Source: a virus
Lineage: Duplodnaviria > Caudoviricetes
Direction: 5' to 3' (one strand)
IMG/VR virus record: IMGVR_UViG_3300011336_000415
Location: 1 to 27,445 of that record
Length of the DNA stretch: 27,445 nucleotides
Part shown: positions 3,600 through 27,445 of the stretch, piece after piece
How the letters are laid out: the number at the start of each line of letters is the position of its first letter
Numbering within the stretch: the first letter of the stretch is position 1
Notes under the pieces: model-generated
The model's input: only the letters and a program-made list of their open reading frames with translations
The model's database searches: none
What the model was told of the DNA's origin: nothing
Program-made: the position numbers and the translations under genes

Positions 3600-3607
3600 T
3601 GTATGCT
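3579..3607 (+). promoter_or_regulatory. Sigma70-type promoter for the opposite-strand peptide gene
   Basis: TTGCTG (3579-3584), 17 nt, TATGCT (3602-3607), 6 nt, ATG 3614. Confidence 0.45.
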
Positions 3608-3613
3608 TAGTTT

Positions 3614-3685
3614 ATGACTATAATTCTTATCTTGATTGCTATATCATTTATAACTTTTTTTATCTCGGAATATCACACGCTTTAA
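3614..3685 (+). CDS. 23-aa single-helix membrane peptide, opposite strand to the virion operon
   Basis: MTIILILIAISFITFFISEYHTL* fills almost the whole 82-nt intergenic gap and has its own promoter-like element. Confidence 0.5.
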   Translation: MTIILILIAISFITFFISEYHTL

Positions 3686-5271
3686 TCATTTGTTAATTCT
3701 CTTAAAGCGTTAATAAACAATACTCTTTCTTCTGGTGCAAATCTTTGTATCTGTTCAAATACTGGTGCAAGTTTTTCTGATGCAATACCCATTTTAGTAG
3801 CAATTTCTCCGATAAATTTAGGTGGTATTACGCTTTGAACTATACCTGATAATTTATCACCAATACTCGCAGCTGAACGAGGAATACCTGATTGTAATTC
3901 TCTACCAGCTTGTCTAGCCAATACATCGCTACCTCCTTGTAGGCTTTCTAGTACATTTCTAGCTACTTCTTTATTCTTAGTAAATAATGTTTGAATTTTA
4001 CCAGCAACAGCCTTAGCATTTTCTGGCGTATTAAATCCTTCACCAGTAGATAAATAAGCATCTAGTTCATCAATAAATCTCTTCTCTTTTGCAAAAGTGT
4101 CATTTAATACCTTAACTTCTGGTACTCTCTTGCCAATATAATCTCTGACATTACTTGATACGCTACCAATAATGGAATTTAGTTGCTTAGACTGTTCACC
4201 TGACTTCTTAAAATTATTTAACTTAGTAGCTAGTGTATTTAATCCTTTTGGCGTTGTATCTTTCCAAGCGTTTATAACACCAAATACCTCTTTTAGTCTT
4301 TTTTCTTCTGTATTGTCTAGTGTAGTACCAAGAAAGTCTAAAGTTCTTTTCTTAGGGTTTACATCTACACCATATTTTCTTAATGTTTCTGTCAAATTAC
4401 TCTTAACACCTTGCATTGATAGAGTATATGTTTTATCTCCAGCTTTTATTGTTGTCTTTTGCCCCGCTGTTATTACTTCTGGATTTCTACCAAGTCTTTT
4501 AGGCAATTCTTCAAGAGCTTTTCCATAGTTTTCTGTTGCCTGTGTAGCTATGTTTTTAACAGAAGATAAAACATTTGTAACATCTTCTTGAATTGTCTTT
4601 AGAGCTGGTATTTTAAGTGCTTTACTGGTTGCTTCTGGTGTCTTTACTGCCTGTTCAATTATATCAGAACCTGTACCAGATAGGACAGCACCAGTTCTTT
4701 TACCGATAGCTCCTAAGAACTTTAATGCTGGACTAACACTTTGAGCTACACCAGAAGCTACACCTGCTGTTACCATTTGACCTTTATCTCCTGTTGTTTG
4801 TAATCCAGTCAATGCTACATCGCCAGCTCCCCTAGCTAATACTCTAGGTATAAAAGACAGGGCTTTGGTAGCCGTTGATATTCTTCCTGTAGGCAATACA
4901 AATTGTGCAACATCACCTATTAACTTTCCTGTTTCCTCTGCTTTAGTTTGTGGTTTTAATGTTTCTGGTGCAAGACCTGTTTTAATATCTTGTAGACCTA
5001 ATACTTTTTTAAATGGTGATAGAGCTAAATTTCCAAGATTTTGTAGTGTTGTTAATCCAGATTTTGCTACACCAGTAGCAACACCCTTCATTCCTACATC
5101 TCCAACAATATCTTTAGGTAAATCTGTAACTTGTGCTTGATAAACTGGATATTTCTGCACTATTTTAGTAACCAATTCTGTATCTGGTATATCAATATAT
5201 TTTCTACCATCACTAGATATGGCATCTGGGTATTTTGTCCTTATTGAGTTTGCAAATTCTTGTGTATTCAT
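3682..5271 (-). CDS. Internal virion / DNA ejection protein
   Basis: 529 aa, helical, with a G/A-rich amphipathic N-half (GKLIGDVAQFVLP...AGVASGVAQ). It occupies the ejection-gene position of podoviruses. Confidence 0.6.
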   Translation of the reverse strand: MNTQEFANSIRTKYPDAISSDGRKYIDIPDTELVTKIVQKYPVYQAQVTDLPKDIVGDVGMKGVATGVAKSGLTTLQNLGNLALSPFKKVLGLQDIKTGLAPETLKPQTKAEETGKLIGDVAQFVLPTGRISTATKALSFIPRVLARGAGDVALTGLQTTGDKGQMVTAGVASGVAQSVSPALKFLGAIGKRTGAVLSGTGSDIIEQAVKTPEATSKALKIPALKTIQEDVTNVLSSVKNIATQATENYGKALEELPKRLGRNPEVITAGQKTTIKAGDKTYTLSMQGVKSNLTETLRKYGVDVNPKKRTLDFLGTTLDNTEEKRLKEVFGVINAWKDTTPKGLNTLATKLNNFKKSGEQSKQLNSIIGSVSSNVRDYIGKRVPEVKVLNDTFAKEKRFIDELDAYLSTGEGFNTPENAKAVAGKIQTLFTKNKEVARNVLESLQGGSDVLARQAGRELQSGIPRSAASIGDKLSGIVQSVIPPKFIGEIATKMGIASEKLAPVFEQIQRFAPEERVLFINALRELTND

Positions 5272-5273
5272 AT

Positions 5274-6932
5274 TTATATTCCTAGAGGGTTATTAGTCGC
5301 ATTTGCGATTGGTGTTAATATTCCTAGAGGGTCTTGTTTCTTACTAGGTTGCGATAATTCTGATTTTAGTTTATTTGTTCTACTAATAATAGAGTTATAA
5401 TCATCTACAAATCCAGATACATTCTGCTGGTTTCTCGCAGCGTCAATTATTGTATTAGAATAAGTCTTTTCAAGAGTGTCTGTAAGTAAATATCTGACAG
5501 CTCTATTTGCATCTTCTGGTGTGTTAATACCTCCAACAGTTTTCTTATAGTTTGCAATATCTGCATCTGTTAAAACACCAACTTCACCATAAATACCTCT
5601 TGCGACAGTAGGTATAAGTCCTTGAATGGTTGCATTTATAGTCGCAGCGTTAGTATCTCCGCCAAGTTGTGACGCTAGAGTTCTTAATCTACCCTGTATT
5701 ACACCTGTGCCTTCTCCAAAGATAGCTTTAGTATCACTACTAGCAACATTTTTACCTTCGGCTAGTTTATTAAGGGTTTCAAGTCCACTTAATGCTTGTT
5801 TAGACTGTGCAATTTTTTGTCTTTGGTCTTGTGCTAGTCCGTCTTTATTCTTAGCTGAGTTTAATATGAGTGCTTTATTATATTCTGGTGAACCTATTTC
5901 AAGTGTAGCCATTCTTGTATCTACTAATCCTGCTGCTCTATCTTTTGCTGCTTCGGCATTTAATTTTCCTATTTGTGCTTGTTTGTATTGTCTATCAAGG
6001 ATTGAATTTAGATAATCTTGTTTTCCTATATATTTACTTCCAGCTGTAGCTACACTAATTAAATCAGTCGCGTTATTAACTGCTTGTATTGTAGATTGGT
6101 CTGCTCCACCTCCATTTTTTGATATTTCAGCAATCATTTGAGCCTTAGCTGTCTGTAAGTCTTGTATGTTTTTCTTTTGTTCTTTTATGTTTTCCTGTAA
6201 AAATGTAATCCTTTCTTTTTCTTTTTTAGATAGATTGTCTAAGTTCGACATTTCCCAATCTTTATAATAAGTTAGAGCGTCATCCAACGGAGCTAGAAGT
6301 AGTTTAGTTTTTCTTTCCGCATCTTGCTGTATACCTTCAATATTTCCTTGTGCTGCGGATTTTAATATAGCCAAGTCTGCTAGACGTCTACCATAAGTAT
6401 CTTGAATGTTATTTAACTCAACATTTCTTTGTGCATCTGACATAGGTAATGCTTTAAGTCTATCTACTTCCTGTCTTATCTGTACATTCTGGTCTGCTAT
6501 ACGAGTATTTATATCGTTAAGTGCTGTTCGTTCTTTAGTAATACCAGCTTGCTCTTCTAAAGTAGCCTGCCCTGCTGTTATTTCACCTTTTTTACTAAAA
6601 ATAGATTTAACAGCATCATTCATAGCTTTATACCCTACACTAGCCTTATCGCCTGTTGCCGCCTGTATAGCATCAAACTCTTTATTGTATTTATCAATCT
6701 CACTTTGTGCCGGCACGGTTATATCAGAGATGATAGAAGAAGCAGGGCTTGTAGTCGTAGTACTAGGTACATTTAACTTAGGAGCTGGTGCAAGTGAAGT
6801 ACCTGTAATATTTGCTGGCTCTCCCGTTGGTTGTGGTAATGGGTCATTAAAATAGATAGGATTATCTGGCGTACCTCCTATACGATTATATTTTATTGTT
6901 TCACCTGTTACTTTGTTTATTGTTTCGTTCAT
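5274..6932 (-). CDS. Internal virion / DNA ejection protein
   Basis: 552 aa, Q/A/K-rich coiled coil with a C-terminal GEVGVLTDADI segment; lies directly after the nozzle gene. Confidence 0.6.
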   Translation of the reverse strand: MNETINKVTGETIKYNRIGGTPDNPIYFNDPLPQPTGEPANITGTSLAPAPKLNVPSTTTTSPASSIISDITVPAQSEIDKYNKEFDAIQAATGDKASVGYKAMNDAVKSIFSKKGEITAGQATLEEQAGITKERTALNDINTRIADQNVQIRQEVDRLKALPMSDAQRNVELNNIQDTYGRRLADLAILKSAAQGNIEGIQQDAERKTKLLLAPLDDALTYYKDWEMSNLDNLSKKEKERITFLQENIKEQKKNIQDLQTAKAQMIAEISKNGGGADQSTIQAVNNATDLISVATAGSKYIGKQDYLNSILDRQYKQAQIGKLNAEAAKDRAAGLVDTRMATLEIGSPEYNKALILNSAKNKDGLAQDQRQKIAQSKQALSGLETLNKLAEGKNVASSDTKAIFGEGTGVIQGRLRTLASQLGGDTNAATINATIQGLIPTVARGIYGEVGVLTDADIANYKKTVGGINTPEDANRAVRYLLTDTLEKTYSNTIIDAARNQQNVSGFVDDYNSIISRTNKLKSELSQPSKKQDPLGILTPIANATNNPLGI

Positions 6933-6935
6933 AAA

Positions 6936-8705
6936 TTATTTGTTTGGTTTGTTATCTAAAATCAATTCATCTATGGTTGTTTCACCGGTACCAAACATAG
7001 CGACTTTTAATTCTATAAGTGTATCTGGTTTACTAATAAGACCAGTATGAAATTTCTGATTTGTCTTGTTTATAGAGCAAATCTTTTTCCAGTTTTCACT
7101 TCTGGCTCTAGCTGTTCCACTTACGATTTCAATAGTTTCATCTAAATTTACAGTATATGTTCCACCACTTTCACTTAGACTTGAAATATGTGCAACACGC
7201 CCAGAACCTTTACCTTGAATAATAGTTATCTCATCACCGACTGATAGACTACTTTCTGTTGTTGTAAATTGTTTTTGTGATGTCCAAGTGATATTAAAAT
7301 CTGTATAACTTGGTTTTTCTGTTCTATATTTTACCACGAAATTAAATCCAGCGGTAGGGTCGTATAGAGTTGTAATACTATTCCACATATCTTCAAAATG
7401 TTCTGCACGAATTTGTTGCGTTGTAAAAAATCCCGCCTTTGAAATATTGTCATAATAATTATCAGTCCATATTCCATAACCTAAACCACTGTCTGTTGCT
7501 GATGTAGTGTAGTAAGAAGCACCTGCTAAGAAATTTCCTTTTGCACTATCTACTGTTGTATATCTATCTGGGATGTTAGCAAGTCCTCCTACACCCGCTA
7601 AAGTAATCTGTCCGTAGTCCTGAATAGCATTTGTTGTTGTCTTGTAGCTTAACGAAGTCTTGTGATACAAACCGTGTTCCTCTGTATATTCCCAAATACC
7701 TGAATGTATATTTTCAAGATATGAAACTGCTGTCGTTGAGTTTTCTTGATTGTTTATCAATATAGAAATAACACCATCAATAGAAGTTAATCCGTTAGGA
7801 TGTATAAATCTCTGGTTAAATATTACTTGTGTAGCTTTATAGAGCAAATTTCTTCGTATTGGCAATCTTCCTTTTTCTAAAAATCCTGAACCTGTAAATT
7901 GTAGTAGCCTAGCGTCAGAAGTTACTACATAAAGTGTTCCGTTTACATCTATATGACCTGCTAAAACTCCTTGTGCTGATACACCATATCTACCCCTCCA
8001 AGTGTCTGCTGTAACACCGTTCCAGTCATAAACATAGGCATCTCCAGCGTTAGAATCTAGTGTACCTATATAAATACCTGCTGAATGTGGTCGCATCCAA
8101 ACTACATCTTGTCCATTAGGGACTTTAAATGTGTATGAAGTCGCTGTTGTGACTGCACTCGTATATGCTGTATCAAAAGAATATATCTGACTTCTAGTAT
8201 CTACCCAATATGCTCGGTTATTGTAAACACAAAGCATATGAGCTGGTGTAGCTCCTGAAACTGTAAATGTTCTACGAGCCGTATAATCACCAGTACCAAC
8301 ACCTCCATTAGTAGCTTTTGAATATAGTTTATCTGTAGCTGATACAAGCAAAACATCTCCAAATACTTCTATGTCAGAATATCTGTAATCGAGCGTTGTA
8401 GTCGGTACACCTGTGGCTGTGTCTTCTGTAAAAACTCCTGTTGCTGTACCGTCATTTTTAAACATTCTTCCTGCACTTGTAAACCAGAAACCAGAAGCTC
8501 CTGCTAGACTATCAAAGAATTTAAATCCAACTGGCACATTCATATTTGTTAGAGTATCTGTAGTCAAAATACTACGAGGAGCTATGCTCATCTTTCCTTT
8601 GTTGTAAGTCAAATCACAATTAAAAGTATTGAAAAGTTTACCTTCTAAAGTTCCAGTGTTCGTTTGTGTAATGTTTCCGTTAAATATTTTATACATTATA
8701 GGCAA
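6936..8705 (-). CDS. Tail nozzle/hub protein (P22 gp10 / T7 gp12-like beta-propeller)
   Basis: 589 aa of beta-rich repeats (DIEVFGDVLLVS, MLCVYNNRAYW, VYDWNG); size and synteny fit. The true start may be ATG 8696 (TAATG overlap). Confidence 0.65.
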   Translation of the reverse strand: MPIMYKIFNGNITQTNTGTLEGKLFNTFNCDLTYNKGKMSIAPRSILTTDTLTNMNVPVGFKFFDSLAGASGFWFTSAGRMFKNDGTATGVFTEDTATGVPTTTLDYRYSDIEVFGDVLLVSATDKLYSKATNGGVGTGDYTARRTFTVSGATPAHMLCVYNNRAYWVDTRSQIYSFDTAYTSAVTTATSYTFKVPNGQDVVWMRPHSAGIYIGTLDSNAGDAYVYDWNGVTADTWRGRYGVSAQGVLAGHIDVNGTLYVVTSDARLLQFTGSGFLEKGRLPIRRNLLYKATQVIFNQRFIHPNGLTSIDGVISILINNQENSTTAVSYLENIHSGIWEYTEEHGLYHKTSLSYKTTTNAIQDYGQITLAGVGGLANIPDRYTTVDSAKGNFLAGASYYTTSATDSGLGYGIWTDNYYDNISKAGFFTTQQIRAEHFEDMWNSITTLYDPTAGFNFVVKYRTEKPSYTDFNITWTSQKQFTTTESSLSVGDEITIIQGKGSGRVAHISSLSESGGTYTVNLDETIEIVSGTARARSENWKKICSINKTNQKFHTGLISKPDTLIELKVAMFGTGETTIDELILDNKPNK

Positions 8706-11666: not shown

Positions 11667-12521
11667 TTATGCTGTCAAAGTAACATCTACGATAAGGTCT
11701 GCAACTGGAGCCCAAAGTTTGAATCCTACATATCCGTAGAACACAACTTCTTTACCAGTCTTACCACTAACACCTTTCTCTTCCATCTGTACATTTCGTA
11801 GAGATGCATACATAGCCTGCTTCTTAACTCCGAATACTCGGTGGTTTGCGTTTGTAACTGTCTTTGTTCCGATAGTAGCATCTGCGAATGTACCAGTTCG
11901 TACAACATAGATGTCAATACCAGCCTGACTTGATACAAGACCATTCTTCATTGCAAGGTCTGAATATGAGAATCCAGAAGCCATCTGTGAACCTAGAACT
12001 CCAGGGACATCAGTGTTTTCAATTATAAGGAATAGACCCTTATATACTTCTGCATAACCCATAACCTTTGATGCAAGGTTTGAAAGGATTGTATTTGTGT
12101 TTGTAGTGTTAAAACCTCCTGATGGTGTTGAGTACGCACCTGTCGCATCTTCACATAGGTTATTTACTACAAAGTAGTCAATCTTCTCTTTGATTCCATA
12201 AGTAGCTGTATCAACAACAGAGTTGAATAGGTCTACTCGTGCAAATCGTGACTCGTAATCTTTGATATGTCCTGCCCACTTAACTTCATTATCTACTGTG
12301 AGAGTATCATCAGTAGTTGTTATATCACTTACATCGTAAGTACCCGTAAGACCAGTAATTGCGACAGTGAAGTTAGTAATGTAAGGATTTTCAATAGTAA
12401 GTGCATTACCATTGTCTACTTCACAAACATCTTCCGCTACAAGTGCCTTTCGGAGCTGTGCGTTAAGTCGTGTTGAAAAGTATTTCTTTCTATAAGTATA
12501 AGTACTTAATGTATTAGCCAT
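11667..12521 (-). CDS. Major capsid protein (HK97 fold, P22-coat-like)
   Basis: 284 aa, follows the scaffold gene. DDTLTVDNE E-loop region and C-terminal GKEVVFYGYVGFKLW. Confidence 0.8.
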   Translation of the reverse strand: MANTLSTYTYRKKYFSTRLNAQLRKALVAEDVCEVDNGNALTIENPYITNFTVAITGLTGTYDVSDITTTDDTLTVDNEVKWAGHIKDYESRFARVDLFNSVVDTATYGIKEKIDYFVVNNLCEDATGAYSTPSGGFNTTNTNTILSNLASKVMGYAEVYKGLFLIIENTDVPGVLGSQMASGFSYSDLAMKNGLVSSQAGIDIYVVRTGTFADATIGTKTVTNANHRVFGVKKQAMYASLRNVQMEEKGVSGKTGKEVVFYGYVGFKLWAPVADLIVDVTLTA

Positions 12522-13960: not shown

Positions 13961-15760
13961 TTATGTTGTCATCTGTGGGATTTGTTGAGAAGATTTCATA
14001 GATTGATTAGATTGAGTTTCGTTAGATAATTCTACTTCTGATACCACACCTGTATTGGCGATAATTTTGTTAAACAACATCTTCATATTAGGGTCTTGTA
14101 GTACTGACGGATTGATTGCTAGTGTTTGTAGTACTGTTGTAAGTGTAGTTAATATAGCTTCCTTATCTCTTTGTTCATTAGTTGTTTCAACTTCTACTTC
14201 CCATTCAAAATCCTTAAACAAGTCACGCCAAGTCTGTGTAGACACATCACTAGGAGAAATAAATCGTTGCTTACCAAATTGAGCTAGTTGTTTCTGTAAA
14301 TCCTGTGTTTCTGACTGTATCATTAAATCCTGCTGATATGGGGATACGATTGAGCCTGCGAGTACCTGCTCTTTAATCTTCTTATTAGTTCGTCTAATAG
14401 CTTCATTAGGGATGTACATTGAATCAATCTTCTTAATGTAGTGGTCATCAAGAGTTGCTGATATTTCGTCTGTTGTATTTAACGATTTCTTAACAAAAGG
14501 TAATACAAACTCTCGCATCATAAGTTCAATATAAAACCCTTTATTTTCTGTCATCAACTCAAACAATGAGTGAGCTTCTTGATTAAGTACAGCTACCTGT
14601 CTATAAGCTGTTCCTGACGGCATTGTGTTTCCTGATATAGCATCTGGTGTTGAAGTAATACTATTAGCATTATTTATCCACATTGTAGAGAAATTCTGTA
14701 GTGAAGTTATATCGTGAGAACCATTGTTTATCTGTGTAAGAGGTGCGTTAGGTGCGTGAGTTAGAATATCTCCGTTCTCAATAGATTTTAATACATTTCT
14801 ACCAACAAAATTAACATCTGCTGTCTGGAAGATTAGCTTTGAAGCCAAATCCAACTGGTCTTTCATAGCCTTAGCCGAATGATTAACCATCCACTGTGAG
14901 TCAAATAGATATTCAACAGCACCTATACCTTGTATTCTACCCTCTTCTTTTAGTAGATGAGTAATTAGATAAGGACTTCGTTTTTCTCTACCTTTCACAA
15001 GGGTAAATGGAATATCTTTACCATCTGTTCCTTTTTGAATAGATACAACGTGCATCTGTTGAACGTAAGTATCTTCATCCGCTGGGTTTTCTGTAATGTA
15101 TGATAAAGGTAATACTCCGTGTACTTCATACAACTCAATATACTCTGCAATATTATCTACCTGTGAGCCGTCTAATAGTTTTCTTGACTGTATCAAATCG
15201 CAAATCTCTTCTACCTTTACTTGGTCATAAGCTGGATTATTCTTTAGCTGTGCTTCTGTAAAATATAATCTTTCAATAACAGGGTTGTTATCAAAGTCTA
15301 TCTGGTCGCAAATAATTCTATTCCAAGGCACTACTTCTCTATGAAGTTCTCCGCCTTTCTCTACAAATTTAGTTACTGCCGAGCCATATCCTGCAAGTAC
15401 CATACCCCAGTCATTTAAAAATTGTCCGAAATTACTTTTTCGCATCCACTCTTGAACTTTAATATTAGCTAGAAAGGCTATTATTACCTCTGATTTCTTT
15501 GTAGACTTTATAGTAATATTCTTTCGGTCAATATCAGTAGCTCTCATCCAAATATTACGAGCGGAAGTGACTATATTGAAAAAAGGCTTATCTCTTCCAA
15601 AGGCATCTTTATCACCTGAAATATGCTTAGAATATAAATAAGCCGTTATCTTTTCTGTATTCTCATATTGATTAAATTCTACATACTTACCGAGCTTTGT
15701 AGAGCCGATAGTATAATCCTGCTCCATCTGTGTAATTAACTTATAAAGATTATCTTGCAT
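13961..15760 (-). CDS. Portal protein (P22-like)
   Basis: 599 aa directly after the large terminase; [12 protein letters not shown]...[11 protein letters not shown]...TAY motifs. Confidence 0.8.
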
Positions 15761-20052: not shown

Positions 20053-20268
20053 TTATATTATAGCGAATAATTCTTCTACTAATACTATGTCTCCAATACT
20101 TTCTATGTAGCTAGGTAAAGTATTTTTAATCCACGCCTGACTATCTGGCTCTGCCCAGTATTTTAAATAGTCTGTTTCTCTTTCTGTAAGCTTTTTATAT
20201 TTTACAGCAACTTTTAGTAAAGTATTTCCGTTTACTAAGGTGAGCAAATAATTGTATTCGGTGTTCAT
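20053..20268 (-). CDS. Hypothetical protein
   Basis: 71-aa ORF in the operon. Confidence 0.6.
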   Translation of the reverse strand: MNTEYNYLLTLVNGNTLLKVAVKYKKLTERETDYLKYWAEPDSQAWIKNTLPSYIESIGDIVLVEELFAII

Positions 20269-20405
20269 AGGTGTTTTATTTGTTTTTACTTTCTAAGAAC
20301 TCCATAAATCCATCAAATGACCTGTCGCTTGGATAAAACTCGTCTTTATACTCCTCCCAATACTCCATAATTAGTTTTAATATTGCTTCTTTCATAGGTG
20401 TTTTA
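20264..20405. repeat. 15-bp direct repeat TTCATAGGTGTTTTA at two successive gene junctions
   Basis: Exact copies at 20264-20278 and 20391-20405. Confidence 0.85.
20276..20395 (-). CDS. Hypothetical protein (39 aa)
   Basis: MKEAILKLIMEYWEEYKDEFYPSDRSFDGFMEFLESKNK*; bounded by 15-bp direct repeats. Confidence 0.55.
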   Translation of the reverse strand: MKEAILKLIMEYWEEYKDEFYPSDRSFDGFMEFLESKNK

Positions 20406-20945
20406 ATAAGTTTTAGTTACAGTAAGACCCGCGTCTTTACATATTTTAATAGCATTTTCCAAAGTGTCAGAGGAACTAAGTGTCAAAGAGTCATTAGAAC
20501 TAGGTAACTTAGAGTTTAGTTGCGGAACCACGAAGCGATAACGAGACTCGGCAGGCCAGACGTAGTCGTTCGAGAAGCGATGGACGTTGGCGGCGAGCGA
20601 GCCAACGGAGTGGACGTACACGTCAGCAACGAAGACTTTTTCTCCACTTTTGAAAGGAAAAAATGTATACCGATTTTTTGATATTAAATCCTTATGATTT
20701 TCTATGAAGTACAATATCTGCTCTTGTGTAAGAAGACTGTCAGGTGACATCATCTGTTGAAAAGTAGCCTTCTCTTTCATCTCCATTACATCTACTTTCA
20801 TTTCCTCAGTAGCCTTACCTTTTTTATTAGCACCCCAGTTTTTAAAGTCTTGGTCTATCCAATCAAATAGCTTTGAGTTTGCTATAATTTTTGTACCTTT
20901 TAGGTTAGGTATAGTTATTGTTTTTATTAGTTTTAGTGTGTGCAT
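20403..20945 (-). CDS. Putative DGR target protein with a sub-terminal variable region
   Basis: 180 aa. The segment VFVADVYVHSVGSLAANVHRFSNDYVWPAESRYRFVVPQ is encoded by a GC-rich, A-poor block. Confidence 0.7.
   Translation of the reverse strand: MHTLKLIKTITIPNLKGTKIIANSKLFDWIDQDFKNWGANKKGKATEEMKVDVMEMKEKATFQQMMSPDSLLTQEQILYFIENHKDLISKNRYTFFPFKSGEKVFVADVYVHSVGSLAANVHRFSNDYVWPAESRYRFVVPQLNSKLPSSNDSLTLSSSDTLENAIKICKDAGLTVTKTY
20519..20636 (-). mobile_element. Diversity-generating retroelement variable region (VR), putative
   Basis: Hand count over 20521-20636: 70/116 G+C and 13/116 A on the coding strand. 38 consecutive codons have no A at position 3, and many are NNC/NNT codons derivable from AAC/AAT. 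Confidence 0.65.
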
Positions 20946-21183: not shown

Positions 21184-21354
21184 TTAATTAAAAGTTACTT
21201 CGTCTATAAAGTTTTCTAATATAGACCGAACAATAGTTTGTGGAGATACCTTTTGCTGTTTTGCTACTTTGTGTACCTTCTCAAATACTTCTTTATTAAC
21301 TCTAACATTTCCTATTTGATAATCTTTTGTTTTATTTAATGATATTTCTTTCAT
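21184..21354 (-). CDS. Ribbon-helix-helix (Arc/CopG-like) DNA-binding protein, 56 aa
   Basis: Not in the track: MKEISLNKTKDYQIGNVRVNKEVFEKVHKVAKQQKVSPQTIVRSILENFIDEVTFN*, a strand-helix-(VS)-helix pattern. Confidence 0.7.
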   Translation of the reverse strand: MKEISLNKTKDYQIGNVRVNKEVFEKVHKVAKQQKVSPQTIVRSILENFIDEVTFN

Positions 21355-21448: not shown

Positions 21449-21772
21449 TTAGATGCCTGATTGTAAGGAATTAAAAGCAGGCGTACCTAAAATGTTGTTT
21501 TTAGTGTTTTCTAATAAATCTCTGCTCTCTTTAACCCTCTTATCTCCAATATGTTCATAATCTTCTCCAGTAAGTTTATAGTCTCGGTTATATCCCATTT
21601 CTCTATTGAAGTCTGGCAAAATACTCATAATGGTTTTACCAGATATAGAACCTTCTTTTAAAAATACCGCTTGTCCTGTTACTTGAGCCTGCATCGTTTT
21701 TTTAAGTTCTGTTTCATCTATAGAAACATAATCATCAATACCGTATCCGATTTTTACTTTAAAATATTTCAT
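21449..21772 (-). CDS. Hypothetical protein following the replication initiator
   Basis: 107-aa ORF 3 nt after the initiator gene. Confidence 0.7.
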   Translation of the reverse strand: MKYFKVKIGYGIDDYVSIDETELKKTMQAQVTGQAVFLKEGSISGKTIMSILPDFNREMGYNRDYKLTGEDYEHIGDKRVKESRDLLENTKNNILGTPAFNSLQSGI

Positions 21773-21775
21773 AGT

Positions 21776-22492
21776 TTATATTGCTAGGCCTCTGCCTTTA
21801 CTTATAATTTCATCTTTTTTTCTTTCAAAGGCGTTTTTTAAAGCTTCCCATTTTTCCTCTAATTGTAGTGGGGTATTGATACTAGGCATATAGGCTATCT
21901 TGTTGGTCTTATTTAATAAACCTACAACTTTTAAAACTTGCTCTAATCCGTGAATATCTATTAAGTTTTTTACAGCTTGTCTTTGAGTTTTGTTTTTAAA
22001 CCACTTTTGATAACTAGGGTTTACTTCTTTAAAAGAATCTATGATTTTTACTACTTCCGCGGAGCTTGTCTCCGCAAGTTCTTCCCTATCCTTACCTATC
22101 CTATCCTTACCTAACCTAACCTGTGTTTCCAAAGTGGATACATTTTGTATACATTCTGTATACGAGCCATTATCTTTTGTGATTAAAGTCTTCTTTTCTT
22201 CAATATATTGAGTTTCATTATATCTATCATTTTGAATATAATTGTGTATTTTCCAATGTTTGATTACAACTACACCTGATTCAAAACTCAATATAAACCT
22301 TTTAGCCAAAAGTATCTTTAAGTCATCATCATTAGCCCCAATCATTTTTGTTATCTTCTTAGGATTTCCAACAAAACCATCATCATCTCCTCTCATTGAG
22401 AGATGAAAATATAGTAGCTGACTACTAGCTGGCATATCCAAGAAAGCATCACTATCAACTATCTTTAAACTAAACATTCTCCTCTGTGCCAT
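21776..22492 (-). CDS. Phage replication initiator / replisome organizer
   Basis: MAQRRMFSLKIVDSDAFLDMPASSQLLYFHLSMRGDDDGFV...VIKHWKIHNYIQNDRY N-domain, then a low-complexity linker RLGKDRIGKDR. Start taken as ATG 22492. Confidence 0.85.
   Translation of the reverse strand: MAQRRMFSLKIVDSDAFLDMPASSQLLYFHLSMRGDDDGFVGNPKKITKMIGANDDDLKILLAKRFILSFESGVVVIKHWKIHNYIQNDRYNETQYIEEKKTLITKDNGSYTECIQNVSTLETQVRLGKDRIGKDREELAETSSAEVVKIIDSFKEVNPSYQKWFKNKTQRQAVKNLIDIHGLEQVLKVVGLLNKTNKIAYMPSINTPLQLEEKWEALKNAFERKKDEIISKGRGLAI
22084..22163. repeat. Short tandem repeats in the initiator linker (candidate origin iterons)
   Basis: CCTATC/CCTTAC/CCTAAC run at 22084-22122 and tandem ATACATT(T/C)TGT x2 at about 22138-22159. 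Confidence 0.5.
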
Positions 22493-22509
22493 ATATTTTT
22501 TAGTATTGT

Positions 22510-22568
22510 TCCTATAATCCACACCCCGCACCTTGCGAGTTCGAGGTATAGATTATAAGACGCAAGGT
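22510..22568 (-). ncRNA. Pseudoknot-capable 5' leader of the replication initiator
   Basis: 18-bp stem (22542-22559 with 22511-22528, 4 G-U pairs) whose loop CGCAAGGU pairs with upstream ACCUUGCG (22561-22568). Confidence 0.65.
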
Positions 22569-22592
22569 TAATTTTTAATGTCCGACCTATAT

Positions 22593-22620
22593 ATTTTACA
22601 CTCACTATAAATATAATCAA
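22593..22620 (-). promoter_or_regulatory. Leftward promoter for the replication operon
   Basis: TTGATT, 16 nt, TAAAAT. Confidence 0.45.
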
Positions 22621-22636
22621 AGTCGTTATTAACACC

Positions 22637-22664
22637 TTTACAAAATATATAAATATGCTATTGT
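22637..22664 (+). promoter_or_regulatory. Rightward promoter
   Basis: TTTACA, 16 nt, TATTGT with a TGn extension. Confidence 0.5.
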
Positions 22665-22770
22665 AATATATAGCCTATTCATACGGCTTAATAGTATAGA
22701 TAGGTCTTAAACCCTATTTGACAACGGGAAAGCTGGCTATTGTCCAAGCACCATAAAGATATATCTCACA

Positions 22771-26952: not shown

Positions 26953-27445
26953 ATGAAAACAAAAATAATTAAAGGTTATAAAGGGTTCGATAAAGACTTC
27001 AAGTGTAGAGATTTCCAGTATGAAGTAAGTAAGGAGTATAAACATAGTGGTGATGTATCGGTATGTAGTTCAGGATTTCATTTTTGTGAAAATCCACTAG
27101 ATGTTCTTAATTACTACCCACTAAAAAACGGCAATCAGTTTGCAGAAGTTGAAGCTAGTGGAAATGTTAAAAAAGAAAATGAAAAATCTTCTACTGATAA
27201 CATTAAAATAGTAGCAAAACTTGATTTGCCTATGTTAATAAAAGCATCTGTAGATTTTATTTGGAGCAAAGCATCTGAAAAAGGTATTTTCAAAAAAGGA
27301 AGTGCCACATCAGGTTATGGTGCCCACAGTGCCACATCAGGTAATGGTGCCCACAGTGCCACATCAGGTAATGATGCCCACAGTGCCACATCAGGTAATG
27401 ATGCCAACAGTGCCACATCAGGTTATGGTGCCAACAGTGCCACAT
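26953..27445 (+). CDS. Phage protein with a KGYKGFD...CSSGFHFCENPLDV domain and 9-aa repeats (DUF7666-like), truncated
   Basis: Not in the track. Open from ATG 26953 to the window end: MKTKIIKGYKGFDKDFKCRDFQYEV...SATSGYGAH repeats. Confidence 0.8.
   Translation, partial: MKTKIIKGYKGFDKDFKCRDFQYEVSKEYKHSGDVSVCSSGFHFCENPLDVLNYYPLKNGNQFAEVEASGNVKKENEKSSTDNIKIVAKLDLPMLIKASVDFIWSKASEKGIFKKGSATSGYGAHSATSGNGAHSATSGNDAHSATSGNDANSATSGYGANSAT
27301..27445 (+). repeat. 27-bp coding tandem repeat, at least 5.4 copies
   Basis: AGTGCCACATCAGGT(A/T)ATG(A/G)TGCC(A/C)AC units start at 27301, 27328, 27355, 27382, 27409 and 27436. Confidence 0.95.

Follow-up and report, generated by a model that had tools for sequence, protein, structure and literature searches.

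The DGR of Bordetella phage BPP-1 consists of mtd, avd, the template repeat (TR) and brt, and varies a tail receptor-binding protein. The locus considered here lies in a 27.4-kb phage contig with terminase and capsid genes (IMG/VR record IMGVR_UViG_3300011336_000415; the window, meaning the whole stretch of 27,445 nucleotides that was analysed) and resembles BPP-1 in having an adenine-specific variable region (VR) with an IMH-like end in a phage gene, but whereas BPP-1 carries its own cassette and a tail target, the small protein targeted here comes from the early region and has a 38-aa tail, and a hairpin is lacking. The chromosomal DGRs of CPR bacteria (Patescibacteria), as covered by the available parts of two surveys (clade 2 of Roux et al. 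2021, PMC8144416; the ‘unknown VR’ CPR classes of Wu et al., PMC5758913), share with it the target family of the cassettes found here, the TR codon pattern, the VR end and the lack of a transmembrane segment, its placement in clade 2 or the UVR class being putative. Those systems are described there as almost entirely cellular, whereas the window target belongs to a phage genome in which RT, Avd and TR were not detected. Remote targets have also been described. According to the available text of Wu et al. (PMC5758913) they lie on the same chromosome or prophage as the DGR, as in Treponema denticola, and none are expected in the case of phage-associated DGRs, since remote targets would not be co-inherited; the accessible part of Roux et al. 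(PMC8144416) gives remote targets as not detectable, and that of a third paper reports second distal VRs inside DGR-bearing gut prophages (PMC12629997). The likeness to these lies in a target far from RT and TR and in action in trans; the difference is that the remote targets in the available parts of PMC5758913 and PMC12629997 share a chromosome or prophage with their DGR, whereas here the target is on a phage and the machinery is proposed to be on the host replicon. In DGRec, as described in the available portion of the preprint (bioRxiv 2025.03.24.644984), lambda-vir is diversified by a cell-borne DGR plus a recombinase. In the shared scheme a DGR residing in the cell diversifies the phage that infects it, assisted by a single-strand annealing protein; DGRec was engineered in E. 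coli, and the window case would be its natural counterpart. The available parts of PMC5883640, PMC12135933, PMC8867640, PMC13739734, bioRxiv 2025.05.30.656956 and bioRxiv 2024.11.15.621889 contain nothing further on trans or remote targeting, and the literature searched, largely open-access, gave no natural example of a host chromosomal DGR serving a phage target.

The gene in question (20403..20945, minus strand) encodes a 180-aa protein. A preliminary description made from the sequence had noted a jump in GC and a depletion of A within this AT-rich gene, and measurement bears this out: on the coding strand, GC amounts to 60.3% and A to 11.2% in block 20521-20636, the highest-GC 116-mer of the window, whereas the remainder of the gene has 31.6% GC and 40.7% A. 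GC3 is 0.29 ahead of the block, 0.76 inside it and 0.24 behind. The 38 consecutive codons said to avoid A at the third position are codons 104-141; among 36 window genes the second longest run free of third-position A has 17 codons, and the expected number of runs of 38 is about 6e-6. Q142 is followed by 38 further codons, the number that had been given for the stretch past the VR. Separate assemblies cross the block without change and, because they are independent, it is not an assembly chimera.

No family was recovered for the 180-aa protein in Pfam, PHROG or PDB-sequence searches, and tblastn of INPHARED with it gave no match. Close homologues number 18 (itself included), and a wider search at E<=0.001 gave 1966 cluster representatives, the top 150 of them being considered. 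At the order level of Minisyncoccota the family is present in 49 of 401 genomes, at the class level in 15 of 401 and at the phylum level in five of 401. Its chromosomal members (Minisyncoccota; Paceibacterota, CPR) form target-TR-Avd-RT cassettes, so that the likeness to CPR-associated DGR targets given in the preliminary description holds. One such locus (L007) holds target, TR, Avd-like ORF and a confirmed RT in a single cassette, and in the L007/L015 comparison 18 of 18 mismatches fall at TR adenines. In all, 14 TRs were parsed beside chromosomal targets. The contigs that bear the cassettes seen for this family all come from MAGs or metagenomes, and the neighbouring genes, where inspected, are cellular. 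Three further loci of the family, L074 (G1073:C8), L097 (G1219:C6) and L020 (G284:C6), are likely remote chromosomal targets, with the cassette on another contig of the genome. A cassette (L008, G003) almost the same as L013, whose neighbours are CPR-like, is on a 2.3-kb contig from a MAG labelled Gammaproteobacteria; it is possibly misbinned. Scans of viral contigs with the protein, alignment A1, L009, P0020 and two VR motifs recovered no full-length relative besides the sister record G001, the weak partial matches L002-L004 being disregarded.

Evidence that the block is a VR comes from its alignment with these TRs. A segment of 114 nt (20520..20633, minus strand) aligns without gaps to 114-nt Minisyncoccota TRs and, against five non-cognate TRs, differs at 16-19 of 28-33 TR adenines and at 17-22 of 81-86 other positions, an enrichment at adenines with Fisher p of 3e-4 to 4e-3. 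The VR ends in CCG CAA like the cassette targets (20519..20531, minus strand), while CCG AAA ends 12 of the 14 TRs, a difference in sequence that recalls IMH and IMH*, so that the window end would be of the recipient form. Third-position A is absent from the window VR and occurs 0-1 times in 13 of 13 cassette-adjacent targets; as a control for relics, of 19 chromosomal copies that have no TR next to them, seven carry 2-6 third-position A, against none of the 13 cassette-adjacent targets. The window VR is, by this measure, not ameliorated. The same restriction is found in the variation among relatives. After removal of five multi-domain proteins from 167, the remaining 162 were divided into 61 with the chromosomal architecture (an N-terminal extension and a stop directly after the VR), 85 of a short form (without extension and with at least 20 residues past the VR), to which the window protein belongs, and 16 unclassified. 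At eight columns where the TR codon is AAY the short forms have an entropy of about 3.0-3.3 bits, and K, E, Q, M and W, which lie outside NNY, occupy one of 680 cells in short forms and two of 488 in chromosomal forms, against 1249 of 3847 in variable control columns. Columns 112, 118 and 136 (3/82, 24/85 and 0/85 for the same residues) were excluded from this set because the TR codon varies there. The adenine-biased TR match and the NNY-only variation at TR-adenine codons uphold the DGR reading of the preliminary description: by sequence, the block is a real DGR variable region and its gene an orphan target carried by what is probably a CPR phage.

Among the 18 closest proteins, identity is 0.62 before the VR, 0.76 at constant VR columns and 0.12 at the TR-AAY columns, where 0.12 is the random value. 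Outside the VR, two short forms (P0004 and P0020) are identical; at the AAY columns they differ in eight of eight, and their lengths differ by one codon (compared at the protein level), differences that together suggest overwriting from two template types. In the cluster of P0023 there are 3-5 upstream substitutions with an unchanged VR. A tree of pre-VR columns needs eight changes between short and chromosomal labels, against 46.7 when labels are shuffled, and one from a subsample of 74 rows needs four against 23.8, with just five well-supported branches; a single origin of the short form is possible on this topology. DNA context was seen for four short-form genes (the window and G001 counting as one, and L009-L011) and is phage-like: on contigs of 1.0-4.4 kb, L009-L011 have the gene amid small phage-like genes, without TR or RT. 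P0061, P0118 and P0037 carry in-frame insertions of HNH-like domains (recognised by eye) placed exactly where the VR ends, after VVP and before the QL tail.

The preliminary description had reported no TR or RT in the window, and this holds in every scan made. PF00078 matched neither the window nor G001 (the control was positive in four of 14 genomes), a custom HMM from 14 related RTs gave a best E of 0.17 in the two records and one for Avd, from 17 motif-picked ORFs, a best E of 0.23, and a repeat search and an adenine-tolerant scan of both found no TR. With none of RT, TR and Avd found in it, the window element does not qualify as an autonomous DGR. The sister record is 35,955 bp long and both of its ends lie inside one tandem-repeat gene, one in the N-terminal and the other in the C-terminal half, so that it is probably a circle broken at the repeat and an apparently complete genome; CheckV gives its completeness as 36%. 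The window also breaks there, in a 27-bp tandem repeat (SATSG units) of a DUF7666 gene at 27301-27445. A remote cassette elsewhere in the phage, one of the sources first envisaged, is therefore not supported, none being found in this probably circular 36-kb sister. Most other 1-kb blocks are 93-100% identical between the two records, 6001-7000 being 77%, and modules are swapped in G001 at 3600-6250 (two large virion-region genes) and 21450-22727 (the replication gene region). No integrase was recognised among the phage genes.

The VR itself does not vary among the close strains seen. It is identical in G001 (927 bp), in unbroken contigs of X10 (depth 239) and X11 (depth 78), in X1, possibly the source run, and in fragments of X3, X5, X7 and X8, the pieces of X9 having no VR coverage; X8 and X9, with small shares, were left out of the habitat evidence. 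Adenine-site variation was absent from the contigs of eight runs, contigs being a form of data that drops rare variants. The partner differing only at TR adenines that had been put forward as a check was not found in the genomes searched: the best of the 14 TRs has 14 non-A mismatches in 82-85 positions, the best match to the 3' half has 3 in 44, and searches for TR motifs in two families, of 10 and 121 genomes, yielded near-cognate TRs alone. The invariance of the VR implies that rewriting is episodic, or that the VR is held by selection, or that it was gained by DNA recombination.

Further evidence bearing on the host came from the virion genes. The major capsid gene (11667..12521, minus strand) and a portal-like gene (13961..15760, minus strand; so labelled from size and position, PHROG 332 giving head-tail adaptor) are about 50% and 55% identical, respectively, to genes of a syntenic integrated prophage on a 357-kb contig of the Paceibacterota genome G1068. 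Capsid matches occur in two of 401 genomes of the Minisyncoccota order; two other capsid relatives (L041 and L042) are uninformative on the target because both end before the target region. Housekeeping genes (identified by eye) flank the prophage, and the two copies of a 14-bp direct repeat that bound it stand about 38.5 kb from each other. The host of the window phage is probably an ultra-small bacterium of the Minisyncoccota (CPR). G1068 has three DGR RTs, each with a TR; one serves the family of the window gene, and its TR is among the three nearest to the window VR (14/83 non-A mismatches). The prophage is without the window's target family, RT or Avd. Its early small-gene region has a 126-aa Lcl_C gene of a different target family (G1068:C1:200470-200850; L080:5471-5851), the VR of which differs from a chromosomal TR (G1068:C18:3730-3865) at 15 of 136 bases, and 15 of 15 differences are at TR adenines (hypergeometric 3e-8). 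This TR sits between RT and bAvd, and its own large target is on contig C7 beside smc/rnc/nusB-like genes (by eye), the assembly breaking within the VR. The prophage VR retains the TR adenine at six sites that are mutated in the assembled host VR (by eye) and was therefore not copied from the present host allele. Short relatives of the prophage Lcl_C gene were also seen and may represent a second family of phage genes of this kind.

We consider it likely that the window gene is a phage-borne DGR target rewritten in trans, episodically, by a host chromosomal DGR, since scans of the phage's apparently complete genome found no RT, Avd or template. Diversification in trans by a host DGR had been one of two sources raised initially and is the one now favoured, the prophage Lcl_C gene and its chromosomal TR providing the parallel. 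An ancestral phage would have captured a host DGR target gene, which then shed its N-terminal extension; the stop would have been read through into a downstream cis element and the terminator arm lost, allowing the gene to fit an early operon. During lysogeny or infection in a host with a sufficiently similar TR, the host RT-Avd would make adenine-mutagenised cDNA to replace the phage VR, and a favourable variant would sweep and then stay fixed until the next episode. Replacement might be aided by a Rad52/22-family single-strand annealing protein of the phage (26160..26615, plus strand; Pfam PF04098, E 4e-15), a speculative role by analogy with DGRec. According to the available part of one study, cDNA integration is linked to replication (PMC12875486).

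The postulated cis element is found behind the chromosomal targets as a non-coding pyrimidine-rich stretch with an 8-nt period, leading into a terminator-like hairpin. A profile built from 22 of 32 such regions gave, at 20459..20489 (minus strand), a score of 29 bits, the top site in the window and one that none of 2000 synonymous recodings reach, the test being partly circular because the anchor motif was picked after the window was seen. Here the element, with a presumed role in cis, is translated in frame as SLTLSSSDTL, and an in-frame reading of it occurs in 42 of 85 short-form tails against 3.4 in shuffles. It is kept in L009 and L011 and absent from L010, where the short-form gene (L010:2188-2751) also has Trp at a TR-AAY position and is possibly an early relic. 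The hairpin of host type is absent from the phage genes, in which the 5' repeat part alone is kept and the 3' arm and T-run are missing, and no stable hairpin follows the window VR (z 0.51). In the accessible text of PMC5758913 a downstream inverted repeat is not universal among DGR targets (34%).

The invariance of the VR in close strains and the missing hairpin would also fit a phage gene that was never a retrohoming substrate, with diversified VRs or whole targets taken repeatedly from host chromosomes by ordinary or annealase recombination. The phage has its Rad52/22-type annealase and G001 carries NinB/NinG genes, and the length difference between P0004 and P0020 fits different donors. 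Against this, the G1068 prophage VR retains six TR adenines that are mutated in the host VR, and its strong DNA homology begins at the TR boundary (both by eye), so that it does not derive from the current host allele, although an earlier allele is possible. The clustering of the short form on the pre-VR tree further indicates that whole genes are not captured afresh each time, and we regard this account as unlikely. Slightly less probable again is that the gene is the relic of a phage-borne cassette, the lineage or a co-infecting element having had its own RT-TR until recently. Such loss has a precedent in epsilon crAss-like phages, in which the RT is fragmented or deleted according to the available part of PMC11054128; DNA context is visible for few short-form genes, and genes are readily gained and lost in the region, as at the indel described below. 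However, no remnant of RT, Avd or TR was found in G001, L009 or L010, the cassettes seen for the family are all on the MAG or metagenome contigs described above, and the VR/TR motif has no match on viral contigs other than G001. An ordinary GC-rich insertion or assembly chimera not involving a DGR, for which the lack of a partner repeat on the contig might speak, is highly improbable given the unchanged block in independent assemblies, the gap-free adenine-biased alignment to real TRs and the family-wide NNY restriction.

A wider proposal, to which we would give even chances, is that this CPR phage lineage gave up or never had its own DGR and maintains ‘client’ targets, with a host-type VR end and cis element, to be rewritten by whichever host DGR is met, the phage parasitising host hypermutation. 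The same gene would then be overwritten from the templates of different hosts, as P0004 and P0020 may illustrate, and the VR would therefore record the last host. Were this true, DGR action would cross replicons in nature and phages would exploit a host mutator; DGR-diversified phage genes would be undercounted, because surveys that rely on an RT adjoining the target cannot link a host mutator to phages; and CPR phages, which are hard to assign, would gain a new marker for host prediction in the match between an orphan VR and a TR. Because phages keep copies, there would also be a handle on the role of non-membrane CPR DGR targets. G1068 makes trans-targeting directly testable.

The AlphaFold model of the 180-aa protein has a pLDDT of 85.2 and a pTM of 0.74. 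The variable residues take alternate positions in strands 103-111 and 117-123 of the model's secondary structure, which suggests that in the predicted fold they share one face. There is no hydrophobic segment (maximum 19-residue hydropathy 1.08). Foldseek found no PDB match at E<=0.001; the best VIA-align Z was 4.1, with many weak C-type lectin rows, and the match to TvpA (2y3c) had Z 3.5 and an rmsd of 4.2 over 123 residues, level with RelE/ParE rows. A part in phage-host conflict as a soluble binder could be envisaged and, tentatively and with some doubt, the protein might be a divergent C-type-lectin-like binder derived from a host variable protein that binds or decoys an intracellular target of the host or a competitor.

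The preliminary description placed the target behind an RHH regulator. An upstream 56-aa gene (21184..21354, minus strand) does have an Arc/RHH-like match, a weak one (PHROG 582, E 5e-4), but is separated from the target by a 72-aa gene. A promoter scan gave 17 sites against 15.1 by chance, which is no excess. On the other side of the target, about 500 bp holding two small genes are missing from the window at 20263-20281 and present in G001, X10 and X11, and X7 has loose ends that match this gap. A short motif ahead of the start codon recurs at 20263-20281, before the inserted gene and just past the target gene, a pattern that suggests repeat-mediated loss of a gene cassette at this site.
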